From the IMG/VR virus record IMGVR_UViG_3300017748_002932: 5,907 nucleotides of DNA, one strand, 5' to 3'. This stretch comes from a virus. The position numbers and the translations under genes were made by a program. Each line of letters begins with the position of its first letter. The first letter of the stretch is position 1. The notes beneath the pieces are model-generated. The model did no database searches and was not told where the DNA came from. It was given only the letters and a program-made list of their open reading frames with translations. Positions 2,802-5,907 of the stretch are shown here, in pieces.

Positions 2802-4901
2802 TTATAGGTTAGGCATTAATTTAGCTGACATTTTTCTTCTAGCGTTATTTTTTACACTTATCTGACACCAAAAGTTCATACTATCCAATGATTTTTGTGC
2901 GAATATATTGTTGTATTTTGACGGATCTATATAAGTACTTAAATCTCCTATACCTTTATCTCCATCGTGGTCATATCTTCTGTTTAATGTCATAAACATT
3001 TCTTTGTTTTCATCTGCGAAGTTTCCTTTACACTTATTCACATTACTCATATAATTTACCCATGCTGGTTGTTTTCCTGCCGATGAATATTCATTATACC
3101 ATTCTCCTGTCTGTGTATCTATTTTACATACTGTATCAAACCATGCTAGTGTATCTGTTACTTTATCTTCAAATGCTATTTGACTTAGTTCAGGTTTATG
3201 AAAGTCATTCATTGTTTTATGATTCATGAAGAATTCATTTCCTTGTGAAAAGTCTAATCTTGGCGTTAGAGATACGATCCCAATTATATATGACGGCTCA
3301 TGTGTTTTTATCTTTATTCTTCCGCCTTTATGCTTCCCTGTTAATCTTCCTCTCCCTGCTAATGTTCCTAATGGCTGTTCTACTTGACTTTCTACATTTA
3401 ATGTATCAGTTGTTGATACTACCTCTTGAAATGCTAGTTCTTTAATTAAACTTCCATGGTATACAGGCGTTTCACATCCTTTTGCTCTTTCGTGTGTGTA
3501 TACTGCATCTAGCCAATCATCGTATGTTCCTCCACTTACTGCAATTCTATTTAGCATGTTATATATCTTTTGAGATAGATTTAATGCATCCATTTTAATC
3601 ACATCCTGTCCTTGACTATTTACATCCACTAATACTGCTGATACATCTGCTACACCTCCATCTCCTGTAATCCATTCTGTATCTAACCAATTATTATTTA
3701 GCCCTGATTGATAGCATTTTATTCCTAGTCCCTCTTGTGCTGCTTTACAGAACGCATCTTCATAGTCATCTGCTGGTACTCCGTTTACTGTATCTAACCC
3801 TAAATTGTATGGTTTTCTACTTTGATAATCCACTTCAAATGCGTTTGGACTTGCTACTGCTTCTAATATATCCTGTCGCATTAAGTCTATATCCTCCAAA
3901 TTAAATCTTTCTAATTCCGGCTCTCCCTCTCCTTGTGCAACTGTATTTTCTATTAAATTCTGTGGCGAGCTAAACACTAACGCACCTCCTGTTGGCATTC
4001 CACTAGACACTCCCGCAAATGTATATTGCTTAAAGTTTGCTGGTGATCCTGTTGGTGTTGTATCGGTTATTTGTGTAAATAATGTACTTGCTTGATATTC
4101 TGTTCCATCTATTTCTATTACTATGTCACTTGTATCTACATCTCCATATGGTGTTGTCGTTTGTGAGTTCCATGTTAATCCTATAGTTAACGCCATTGTT
4201 CCTCCTGTCAATATCGATGTATTATTTGTTGTTACATTATTTGCATGTATATTTCCTAAATCATTTCCATTTAAATACAAATCATTATAACTTACATTCC
4301 ATTTATTCCCAAATGAAGACTGGTGTATTACATATCCTACCGCTTTTCCATTCACTGATTCTTGTAAATTTGCGTAATACTGTCTATATATTGACCAATA
4401 TCCTAATAATGGCACCGCATTGAATAGCCTTTCTACATTACTTTTATTACTCTTTCCTCTCCCCAATCCATGAATTCCTAGATATGAGTATATAGAACTT
4501 GTATTTACTTGTGCATTTGCAGTTTTATCATTTTCATCCCAATATCCTACCATTCTCATTTGTGGTAGTTTAATTTTACTCATGTCCATCCCTACATTAA
4601 TCATATTCATATGTAGTTTTCCTTGAAATAATCGAATTGGTACTTCAAATACGTCTAATTGTACTTTATATGATCCAAATAGCGGTCCCAATGTTGGCAA
4701 TGTTTTAATATCACAATCTAAGTTTATGTCAAACGTATCCCCCGGCAATGCTAATTGATTCATGAACGGTACTAATGTCCCTGCTGCCATTGTTGTTCTC
4801 CATGTGTATGATAGATCGTGTGTACTTCTTGAGTAATTCTTTGCAGTTACTTCCATTTTTGAGCCCGAGCCGAGTCGTTCTCCTCCTAGTGTTGTCTTCA
4901 T
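2802..4901 (-). CDS. VP1: Major capsid protein VP1 (Microviridae F-protein family jelly-roll)
   Basis: 699-aa ORF starting at an ATG. N-terminal motifs are GGERLGSGSKM...RSTHDLS...TTMAAGTLVPF...LPGDTF. Further motifs are LLGYWSIYRQYYANLQE and KIYNMLNRIAVSGGTYDDWLDAVY, which are typical of microvirus VP1. The large size matches the Alpavirinae-type capsids. Confidence 0.92.
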   Translation of the reverse strand: MKTTLGGERLGSGSKMEVTAKNYSRSTHDLSYTWRTTMAAGTLVPFMNQLALPGDTFDINLDCDIKTLPTLGPLFGSYKVQLDVFEVPIRLFQGKLHMNMINVGMDMSKIKLPQMRMVGYWDENDKTANAQVNTSSIYSYLGIHGLGRGKSNKSNVERLFNAVPLLGYWSIYRQYYANLQESVNGKAVGYVIHQSSFGNKWNVSYNDLYLNGNDLGNIHANNVTTNNTSILTGGTMALTIGLTWNSQTTTPYGDVDTSDIVIEIDGTEYQASTLFTQITDTTPTGSPANFKQYTFAGVSSGMPTGGALVFSSPQNLIENTVAQGEGEPELERFNLEDIDLMRQDILEAVASPNAFEVDYQSRKPYNLGLDTVNGVPADDYEDAFCKAAQEGLGIKCYQSGLNNNWLDTEWITGDGGVADVSAVLVDVNSQGQDVIKMDALNLSQKIYNMLNRIAVSGGTYDDWLDAVYTHERAKGCETPVYHGSLIKELAFQEVVSTTDTLNVESQVEQPLGTLAGRGRLTGKHKGGRIKIKTHEPSYIIGIVSLTPRLDFSQGNEFFMNHKTMNDFHKPELSQIAFEDKVTDTLAWFDTVCKIDTQTGEWYNEYSSAGKQPAWVNYMSNVNKCKGNFADENKEMFMTLNRRYDHDGDKGIGDLSTYIDPSKYNNIFAQKSLDSMNFWCQISVKNNARRKMSAKLMPNL

Positions 4902-5547: not shown

Positions 5548-5597
5548 TGTTTTTTTGTTTTTTTTGAGGGGTAGGGGAGTTGTCTTTTTGTCAGTCG

Positions 5598-5616
5598 TAG
5601 CCTGCTATTTTGGCTA
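5598..5616. promoter_or_regulatory. Hairpin tagcc-N9-ggcta abutting the dif-like site
   Basis: tagcc (5598..5602) is the reverse complement of ggcta (5612..5616), giving a 5-bp stem and a 9-nt loop. It is directly adjacent to the 28-mer at 5616..5643. Confidence 0.35.
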
Positions 5617-5643
5617 GTTTACATACTATATATTATAGGACAA
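5616..5643 (-). other. dif-like 28-nt XerC/XerD-type recombination site (candidate attP)
   Basis: The minus strand reads TTGTCCTATAA TATATA GTATGTAAACT, laid out as 11-nt arm, 6-nt spacer, 11-nt arm. Against the Bacillus subtilis dif as I recall it (ACTTCCTAGAA TATATA TTATGTAAACT) it matches 7/11 + 6/6 + 10/11 = 23/28. Against E. coli dif (GGTGCGCATAA TGTATA TTATGTTAAAT) it matches 18/28. The site is intergenic. Confidence 0.5.
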
Positions 5644-5678
5644 TTTTTAACTCCTTGATTCTCAGTTTGTTATTATTT

Positions 5679-5689
5679 ATTTTACATAA
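5679..5689 (-). other. Second XerD-arm-like half-site TTATGTAAAAT, a direct repeat of the TATGTAAA core of the dif-like site
   Basis: The minus strand reads TTATGTAAAAT. This is 10/11 to the XerD-side arm of both E. coli (TTATGTTAAAT) and B. subtilis (TTATGTAAACT) dif. The flanking sequence gives no convincing XerC arm. It has the same orientation as the 5616..5643 site and lies 35 nt upstream in minus sense. Confidence 0.3.
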
Positions 5690-5702
5690 TATTGCCGCTA
5701 AT

Positions 5703-5861
5703 CTACAATATTAATTTTAATTGTTTATCTATTTTATCTTTTTTTTCTATTACTTGTATCCAATTTCCTCCTTTATATGGTTCTATTACTACTTCTACTT
5801 GATTACCTTCGTATCTTATATATCTTACTGTCCCTTTATTTGTTTTTTCTCCTATCTTCAT
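5703..5861 (-). CDS. Hypothetical 52-aa ORF absent from the ORF track (below its length cut-off), interrupted by the linearisation point
   Basis: Manual translation from the ATG (5861..5859) to TAG (5705..5703) gives MKIGEKTNKGTVRYIRYEGNQVEVVIEPYKGGNWIQVIEKKDKIDKQLKLIL. It is on the same strand as all other genes and fills an otherwise empty stretch between the VP4 end and the 155-nt intergenic region. The composition is protein-like. Codons 1-26 lie in the terminal repeat. Confidence 0.5.
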   Translation of the reverse strand: MKIGEKTNKGTVRYIRYEGNQVEVVIEPYKGGNWIQVIEKKDKIDKQLKLIL

Positions 5862-5907
5862 AATTTCTTAAACATCAAGCGCGATTTATCGCAAGGATTG
5901 TAGCCAC
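5785..5907. repeat. Right copy of the exact 123-nt terminal direct repeat
   Basis: Identical to 1..123. It runs to the last base of the window. Confidence 0.95.

Follow-up and report, generated by a model that had tools for sequence, protein, structure and literature searches.

A dif-like site in a marine microvirus genome

The stretch of DNA considered here, hereafter the window, is the IMG/VR virus record IMGVR_UViG_3300017748_002932 (5907 nt), a microvirus sequence that carries a 28-mer closely resembling dif, the bacterial chromosomal site at which the recombinases XerC and XerD resolve chromosome dimers. A first-pass annotation, made from the letters alone, had proposed this 28-mer as part of a Xer-dependent lysogeny module in a single-stranded DNA (ssDNA) phage. 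The minus-strand 11-6-11 arrangement at positions 5616–5643, with a XerC-type arm, a central region and a XerD-type arm (Table 1), reads exactly as it claimed, and the complete 28-mer occurs only once in the window.

The window ends in a 123-nt direct repeat (positions 1–123 are identical to 5785–5907), which indicates a complete circular genome of 5784 nt, with a G+C content of 32%. Three other sequences (L004, L007 and L010) have comparable terminal repeats of 121–123 nt, and the recurrence of these lengths suggests an assembly overlap. All plausible genes lie on the minus strand and include those for Rep/VP4, the DNA pilot protein and the major capsid protein VP1; the remaining open reading frames (ORFs) are small, every unassigned one encoding at most 119 aa. 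Nucleotide and protein searches matched uncultured Microviridae only, with a top VP1 identity of 59% among GenBank phage records. As the first-pass annotation had stated, the 28-mer lies in the longest non-coding stretch, a 155-nt gap between small minus-strand ORFs, and no recombinase or integrase domain was detected in any ORF: Pfam and PHROGs scans of the nine minus-strand ORFs matched Rep, pilot and capsid only.

Table 1. Positions of the features discussed in the text, in the window and in the provirus-bearing contig L001
Feature	Sequence	Position	Strand	Remarks
dif-like 28-mer, candidate phage attachment site (attP)	window	5616..5643	-	TTGTCCTATAA-TATATA-GTATGTAAACT (11-6-11); reads 5643->5616 as TTGTCCTATAATATATAGTATGTAAACT
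XerC-type arm TTGTCCTATAA	window	5633..5643	-	matches the XerC arms of Robiginitalea biformata and Syntrophus dif at 11/11 positions
Central region TATATA, 6 nt	window	5627..5632	-	same spacer as in dif of B. subtilis, S. aureus and Chlorobium chlorochromatii
XerD-type arm GTATGTAAACT	window	5616..5626	-	first position (site position 18) is G; canonical T
Second canonical XerD-arm-like half-site TTATGTAAAAT	window	5679..5689	-	lacks a XerC arm of its own; direct orientation, upstream of the full site's XerC arm by 35 nt
Octamer GGGTAGGG, match to the FtsK-orienting consensus	window	5569..5576	+	about 38-39 nt past the XerD arm, pointing to it
Conserved block CTCCCCTACCCCTC	window	5579->5566	-	contains the octamer complement; non-coding alignment
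Non-coding region holding site, octamer and half-site	window	5548..5702		ORF map; conserved blocks in the alignment of relatives
Rep/VP4	window	1110->148	-	PF23343, phrog_942
DNA pilot protein	window	2108->1128	-	ORF map and Pfam/PHROGs scans
Major capsid protein VP1, 699 aa	window	4901->2802	-	PF02305, phrog_514
Distal repeat of provirus, ACATTCTCTAA-TTGCAA-GTATGTCAAAT	L001	14842->14815	-	G at first XerD-arm position, as in the window
lon-side repeat of provirus, TTATATCCTAA-TTGCAA-TTATGTAAAAT	L001	8548->8521	-	87 nt upstream of lon

The two reference sites used in the first-pass annotation, dif of B. subtilis (ACTTCCTAGAATATATATTATGTAAACT) and of E. coli/Shigella (GGTGCGCATAATGTATATTATGTTAAAT), are verbatim those published (Kono et al. 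2011, PMC3025954, supplement 2), and its match counts stand: 23/28 positions for B. subtilis, including the whole spacer (6/6) and 10/11 of the XerD arm, and 18/28 for E. coli. The 28-mer is closer still to dif of S. aureus and of Robiginitalea biformata (24/28 each, the latter with a XerC arm at 11/11), and the closest published sites, at 25/28, are those of Syntrophus and Chlorobium chlorochromatii, the last by hand count. Chance was evaluated as the minimum Hamming distance to 30 published dif sites over both strands of the whole 5784-nt genome. The observed minimum was three mismatches; dinucleotide-preserving shuffles (n = 2000) reached five at best, in 15 cases, and none came within four, nor did any of 1000 sequences drawn from a Markov chain trained on non-coding stretches (31% G+C). 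The resemblance of the 28-mer to dif is real and far beyond chance. The 10-nt core of the right arm, which the first-pass annotation had considered improbable by chance on its own, fared less well: it gave three matches at up to one mismatch against 0.92 expected, and is by itself a weak statistic.

Only one full site is present, and no inverted partner of it was found in the window; the ssDNA fold of positions 5548–5702 is no better than that of shuffled sequences (z = -1.55). The half-site at 5679–5689 has the same sequence as the XerD arms of Flavobacterium johnsoniae and Gramella dif, and could be an excision relic or an additional XerD-binding site; a 12-mer, ATTATGTAAAAT, is present in 8 of the 10 window-clade genomes. 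Short elements of the types TGACA, TGTCAG and CTGA..TCA flank the site on both sides in the window clade (window 5585–5597 and 5648–5657, minus strand), with four copies of such TGACA-type elements at 2800–2920 of the relative L002, and could represent the binding site of an accessory factor. A hairpin just past the site that seemed compensatory by eye was dropped after RNAalifold returned no consensus pairs for 12 sequences.

Conservation, arm structure and a polar octamer

The site is retained in relatives of the window, in line with the first-pass proposal. It occurs with two mismatches in L002 (VP1 73% identical; TTGTCCGATAATATATAGTATGTAAAAT) and with five in L003 (VP1 63% identical; TTGTCCGATAATATATATTAAGTAAAAC), and a pattern scan for the site returned nine contigs, all of microvirus size (5.5–6.05 kb). 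For an unbiased test of conservation, metagenomes were scanned by VP1 alignment without use of the site, which yielded 80 contigs, mostly marine and many of them partial. Roughly half of the 80 contain the dif-like 28-mer, as do roughly 34 of the ~42 that are near-complete. Scores for the core are bimodal, with site-bearing genomes matching 16–19 of the 19 core positions and the others 12–15. Most relatives down to ~50% VP1 identity, a marine clade with VP1 47–73% identical to that of the window, have the 28-mer in the same intergenic gap, usually 510–650 or ~1000 nt upstream of VP1. Together with the neighbouring octamer, the 28-mer forms the best conserved non-coding sequence over ~50% VP1 divergence, while the DNA between these two blocks varies both in sequence and in length, from 16 to 174 nt.

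The strand of the site relative to the genes is variable: among 96 non-redundant site-bearing genomes it is the same in 22 and opposite in 74. In the window subclade the XerC-to-XerD direction follows the gene strand, and in most sister subclades it is opposite at the same genome location, the dif-like module having been moved or inverted as a unit. The occurrence of both orientations argues for a site acting on double-stranded DNA (dsDNA), and not for a promoter or a strand-specific ssDNA origin, neither of which would tolerate inversion because the genes and the packaged strand of microviruses share one polarity.

Comparison of 31 distinct phage sites revealed a clear asymmetry between the arms. 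In the XerC arm, positions 3 and 8–11 never vary and position 7 holds either T or G; positions 7–17 as a whole are nearly invariant and host-like, with [T/G]ATAA at 7–11 and a spacer of TATATA, TTTATA or TTAATA, the last two in sister subclades and TTTATA being the Flavobacteria spacer listed by Kono et al. The inner XerD arm, which reads TTATG in 15/15 host sites (non-Bacteroidia Bacteroidetes and Chlorobi of the Kono list), does so in only 3/31 phage sites, the others having CTATG (12), GTATG (7), TTAAG (6) or further variants. These changes form a non-random pattern and are not decay. The T-to-G change at site position 18 recurs in the distal site of the L001 provirus and in the Cellulophaga phages phi12:2 and phi18:4, both described below.

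The octamer lies beyond the XerD arm and resembles the FtsK-orienting polar sequences (KOPS) of E. coli, GGGNAGGG, and the SpoIIIE recognition sequence (SRS) of B. subtilis, GAGNAGGG (PMC3384302). The union of the two, G[GA]GNAGGG, was set a priori as the search pattern and applied within 300 nt of the site in the 96 genomes. An octamer aimed at the site was found in 50/96 genomes and one pointing away in 0/96; it stands on the XerD side in 45 genomes (+16 to +174) and on the XerC side in five (~-236), and it points to the site whichever way the module faces with respect to the genes. The 51 octamers within this distance read GGGTAGGG (22), GAGTAGGG (19) or GGGGAGGG (10), compared with 20 octamers in the rest of the genomes (425 kb). 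In the window, GGGTAGGG is the sole octamer of this pattern, and as a G-rich word on the G-poor strand it would be expected from composition alone at an estimated ~0.006 copies per genome. The block containing it is kept in 10/10 window-clade sequences, with a single substitution in one; its alignment consensus is ACA(A/C)CTCCCCTAC(C/T)C, the complement of which contains G[GA]GTAGGG. A narrower motif, CTCCCCTA, was rejected as the conserved unit, the a priori consensus fitting better and covering both registers, GRGTAGGG and GGGGAGGG.

At least three arrangements were seen, in the order origin-like motif, site and octamer; origin-like motif, octamer and inverted site; or octamer, origin-like motif and inverted site, and the octamer points to the site across all of them. 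The origin-like motif, a candidate Rep nick site or origin, consists of an A-run followed by (G/A)TGTAtATTAG(C/T), the window copy being TGTAGATTAGC (5697–5707, minus strand). It is always on the gene strand, with the dif-like module facing either way (window, L018, L019, L022, L050 and others), and it resembles the phiX174 origin core, TGATATTAAT.

Integrated relatives and the probable host

The first-pass annotation had proposed a search for related proviruses at dif, and one was found at some phylogenetic distance, with none in the window's own clade. A scan of genome collections with window-specific peptide words, a search of low sensitivity, gave a single match, L001, a 104-kb contig of a Paludibacteraceae metagenome-assembled genome (MAG). 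The element encodes VP1 (36% identical to that of the window), a pilot-like protein and Rep, and this 6.3-kb microvirus is bounded by dif-like direct repeats 6294 nt apart. Three provirus-free relatives (lon 88–90% identical) have a single site at this place, ATAAATGCTAA-TTGCAA-TTATGTAAAAT or TCAAATCCTAA-TTGCAA-TTATGTAAAAT, and their nucleotide homology to L001 begins 2 nt before the lon-side site and extends 5.3 kb; the comparison is one-sided, the other flank not being syntenic. The chromosomal dif of Paludibacteraceae is apparently xxAAATxCTAA-TTGCAA-TTATGTAAAAT, just upstream of lon (L246 9892–9919; L248 9890–9917). More distant Alpavirinae-like loci also have canonical dif cores, one of them on an 83.8-kb contig.

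Within the window's clade, more than 150 related contigs were retrieved and about ten long ones examined; these were concatemers or tandems, and none contained a phage-host junction. Long contigs considered as integrated close relatives (P0001/L093, P0081/L094, P0112/L095, P0026/L241, P0029/L243, L077 and L102) were rejected as concatemers, palindromic chimeras or tandems. The 11.2-kb contig L093 (positions 1–11240; ENA ERZ26869290 ctg308216) is the window's own genome, with VP1 100% identical over 653 aa, in part as an inverted duplication and with frame-broken gene copies, and has the look of a chimera produced by long reads or amplification rather than of an integrated copy. Two diverged clade genomes (52–95% identical) stand in tandem in L095 (1–8918, sites at 3884 and 8835), L077 (1–9558) and L102 (1–8288), and in L095 the changeover between the two genomes is compatible with a 53-nt identical block containing the dif-like site. 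These three contigs may be genuine cointegrates or arrays made by Xer; otherwise they are chimeras of assembly, formed at the most conserved k-mers.

The Paludibacteraceae contigs also gave information on the octamer in a bacterial chromosome. Around dif in this family, which belongs to an order other than that of the presumed host, G[GA]GNAGGG occurs 22 times toward the site and four times away from it over ~73 kb of partly homologous contigs; over the same sequence GRGTAGGG alone occurs 16 times toward and never away (manual count). This distribution is suggestive of a KOPS of the GGGNAGGG type, with T at N, in Bacteroidales. Around canonical dif cores in a mixed set of 29 IMG/VR contigs the counts were 14 toward and 19 away, an uninformative result in which taxa and prophage interiors are mixed. 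The literature searched held nothing usable on KOPS in Bacteroidota and no description of KOPS on integrative mobile elements that exploit Xer (IMEXs).

A clue to the host came from a scan with the commonest core, which retrieved L166, the Cellulophaga phage phi12:2 (100% identical to KC821606), an isolated ssDNA phage of Cellulophaga baltica (Flavobacteriaceae). Its Rep (PF02486) and structural genes are unrelated to those of the window, and the Rep and capsid of phi18:4 and Omtje_3, two other isolated Cellulophaga ssDNA phages, are likewise unrelated. Both phi12:2 (L166 5139–5166, minus strand) and phi18:4 (L176 5166–5193, minus strand) contain the intergenic site TTGTACTATAATTTATAGTATGTAAATT, which matches dif of Gramella forsetii, also of the Flavobacteriaceae, at 26/28 positions by hand count, with T18G; Omtje_3 has TTGTCCTATAATTTATATTATATACAAC at the corresponding place (L177 1121–1148, minus strand). 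According to a 2025 study of phi18:4, the halo of its plaques is turbid and "temperate phage-like" and the phage has "no identifiable lysogeny genes"; Xer is unmentioned there (PMC11946311). These sites, along with the marine origin of the relatives, point to Flavobacteriia or other Bacteroidota as hosts, and the host of the window's clade would be a member of the Bacteroidota, probably of the Flavobacteriia. The likeness to dif of candidate hosts, which the first-pass annotation had proposed as a check, is seen in Bacteroidota and Chlorobi sites and in the Cellulophaga phages, and these phages offer a culturable, immediate experimental system with the same site.

Two further groups of dif-associated sequences were encountered. 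Nine IMG/VR records (L179, L184, L187, L200, L204, L207, L215, L218 and L227), four of them isolate-genome proviruses, share a common arrangement in which a canonical site such as ACTACCTATAATTTATATTATGTTAAAT is followed by a conserved TGTAAGGGGTTGTTCATTTCTAGAATAATGATG, within ~150–710 nt of the end of the available sequence in most and interior in L227; they may be another element family sitting at dif. In addition, many large dsDNA phage records (such as Escherichia phages Av-05, FV3 and Murica, and many "Campylobacter phage" records) match the E. coli dif region at 27–29 of 29–31 positions, for the most part where the DNA is unannotated.

Interpretation and comparison with known Xer-exploiting elements

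We place at about two in three the probability that the 28-mer is a phage attachment site for its host's XerC and XerD. The 23–25/28 match to dif, which null sequences never approached to within four mismatches, leads to this reading, as do the absence of a recombinase gene, the conserved intergenic place, the strand independence and the arm asymmetry; the integrated relative L001, the site in phages of Flavobacteriaceae and the polarity of the octamer add to it. The window's clade would then depend on host Xer proteins and integrate. The interpretation offered in the first-pass annotation is supported, since checks of the four refuting outcomes that it had named bore out none of them; the mechanism has an experimental precedent in another microvirus group (PMC7062461).

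In the mechanism that we envisage, the infecting single strand would be converted to the double-stranded replicative form, and XerC and XerD would bind the phage site through its perfect XerC arm, its host-type spacer and a XerD arm changed at one inner position. The complex would synapse with chromosomal dif, and strand exchange would insert the 5.8-kb genome beside it, leaving a prophage with a host-like dif site at one end and a phage-like one at the other. The alteration that recurs in the inner XerD arm is the hallmark of IMEXs and is expected to skew the reaction, for instance by restricting excision whenever the cell divides. The GRGTAGGG octamer would load FtsK toward the XerD side of the site, a geometry matching FtsK activation of XerD at chromosomal dif, where the G-rich strand runs 5' to 3' toward the XerD side (PMC5357621). 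A role of the octamer as an FtsK-orienting element is predicted from its sequence and placement. That a dif mimic and a single FtsK-orienting octamer aimed at it (GRGTAGGG or GGGGAGGG) make up a two-part module in a large marine microvirus clade and in at least two more distant microvirus groups is a more tentative proposal, which we consider possible rather than probable. If it is true, these phages recruit the FtsK septal DNA pump besides XerC and XerD, timing or driving integration, excision or resolution of the replicative form, and the module indicates GGGNAGGG-type KOPS in Bacteroidota.

Several observations weigh against the attachment-site reading or its FtsK component. The clade yielded no phage-host junction, as reported above, and the site is missing from some complete relatives, which implies that it is dispensable for lytic growth; a similarly patchy distribution is known in gokushoviruses (Kirchberger & Ochman 2020, PMC7062461). 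The 28-mer was scored against published dif sites and may differ from dif of its own host, and its TATATA spacer differs from the TTTATA of the Flavobacteria listed by Kono et al. No more than about half of the genomes with the site have the octamer, and none was found in the L001 provirus, in phage phi12:2 or in one enterogokushovirus-like genome, the last indicating that it is not a general feature of microvirus IMEXs. The 50:0 polarity count is inflated by shared ancestry, comprising about ten spacing classes and three arrangements; the consensus used comes from E. coli and from B. subtilis, and that of Flavobacteriia may differ; and a weakened XerD arm fits oddly with a motif that delivers FtsK to XerD.

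The strongest alternative, which we nevertheless judge unlikely, is that the Xer site serves the episomal double-stranded replicative form, in multimer resolution or in a carrier (pseudolysogenic) state as at cer and psi, with no integration. It would agree with the lack of an integrated clade member and with the many contigs that are concatemers or tandems, although these may be amplification or assembly artefacts. The DNA of enterogokushoviruses persists as unintegrated circles (PMC7062461), and on a small circle FtsK-dependent resolution would benefit from an FtsK-loading octamer beside a dif-like site. However, distant relatives are integrated at dif (L001; PMC3091885), the systematic alteration of the XerD arm follows the pattern seen in integrative elements, and no accessory region of the cer/psi type was identified, ArgR and ArcA boxes not having been searched.

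Less probable again is a functionless passenger, in which host DNA from the dif region, consisting of dif and its nearest polar motif, was acquired through ancestral imprecise excision. The XerC arm and spacer are identical to those of real host dif sites, the octamer has the sequence and polarity seen around a Bacteroidales dif, and the module has moved or inverted as a unit, all of which such an origin would explain. Yet the 28-mer and the octamer are the non-coding blocks best conserved over DNA that otherwise changes, and the XerD arm alters in a non-random manner, unlike decay.

Very improbable is a promoter, operator or replication-origin element that resembles dif merely through AT-richness: phage origins and promoters must also sit here, other conserved blocks surround the site, and TTGTCC-N16-TAAACT, 68 nt upstream of an ORF start, is loosely sigma-70-like, but the promoter scan makes no call (8/12 positions match), the 16-nt "spacer" is conserved as strongly as the hexamers, the site opposes all genes in most of the 96 genomes, the ssDNA fold is no better than in shuffles and AT-rich nulls never approach the dif match. 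The sigma-70 reading was rejected for the missing call and the opposite-strand subclades.

Xer-dependent lysogeny of microviruses as such is not new, having been proposed in 2011 and demonstrated in 2020 in other microvirus lineages. New here are the lineage, which is a large marine clade, the single-base change that nearly all sites show in the inner XerD arm, and the KOPS-like octamer that points to the site. In the sea and the gut, microviruses rank with the most abundant ssDNA phages, and they are usually regarded as strictly lytic; a dif mimic conserved over a large marine clade would imply that lysogeny or Xer-dependent persistence is widespread there. The mimic is also a sequence-based clue to the host, toward Bacteroidota and probably Flavobacteriia, and the single-base change together with the octamer provides testable design rules for how a recombinase-less genome of 5.8 kb may control a host recombination machine.

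Among the closest known systems are the microvirus proviruses of Bacteroidota that lack a recombinase and are flanked by dif-like repeats, BMV1-7 or "Alpavirinae" (Krupovic & Forterre 2011, PMC3091885), for which the Xer route had been proposed, as the first-pass annotation noted; BMV4-6 have an additional dif-like sequence near one end (PMC3091885). The L001 provirus is of this same kind. BMV-type elements are known solely in integrated form, from gut and oral Bacteroidales, whereas the window, from a marine clade, is a circular genome in free form, with a VP1 36% identical to that of L001 and ~25% identical to those of human microbiome (HMP) loci.

The enterogokushoviruses provide the experimental parallel. 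They have no integrase and a single dif-like site, 28 bp long, within a short non-coding region, with a host-like XerC side and a diverged spacer and XerD arm (PMC7062461), and integration of EC6098 requires xerC and xerD as well as the two arms of the phage site; FtsK and KOPS are unmentioned in that study (Kirchberger & Ochman 2020, PMC7062461). They form another microvirus lineage, with genomes of 4.3–4.7 kb and Enterobacteriaceae hosts, compared with the 5.8-kb, marine window clade with its 699-aa VP1, known here from sequence. The enterogokushovirus-like genome that we checked shows the same arm asymmetry, its site being GGTGCGCATAATGTATATTTTGTTAATA, with no G[GA]GNAGGG anywhere. In the Robinz microvirus RP_37 (4.3 kb, bird faeces) a site matching E. 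coli dif at 25/28 positions lies at the very start of the annotated Rep (L250 2555–2582, minus strand), a placement that is the enterogokushovirus arrangement of Kirchberger & Ochman.

Beyond the microviruses, attP of the Vibrio phage TLCphi and of the gonococcal island (GGI) combines a conserved XerC arm and centre with a divergent XerD arm (PMC5357621), the asymmetry that is also seen in enterogokushoviruses and in the window-clade sites. The Vibrio IMEXs (CTXphi, VGJphi and TLCphi) and GGI exploit host XerCD at dif, as proposed for the window, the former being filamentous phages and the latter a 57-kb island, in contrast to a microvirus. CTXphi recombines through a folded ssDNA hairpin made from two inverted sites; an attP of this type was rejected for the window, which has a single site without an inverted partner, no significant fold and a half-site in direct orientation, in a clade that uses either strand. 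TLCphi supplies its own XerD activator, XafT, whereas the candidate route to activation in the window is a KOPS-like DNA motif.

The plasmid-type sites cer and psi share with the window a XerCD core site on a small circular replicon. Their accessory sequences, of ~180 bp, are situated on the XerC side, where PepA binds together with ArgR or ArcA, and their recombination is FtsK-independent; in the window the conserved flanking motif is on the XerD side. The dif activity zone of chromosomes, formed by dif and the KOPS that converge on it, likewise consists of a 28-bp XerCD site and octamers aimed at it, as at the Paludibacteraceae dif. The phage version would be a miniature of that zone, usually with one octamer, 16–174 nt away and mostly on the XerD side only, on a circle of 5–6 kb and with a non-canonical XerD arm.

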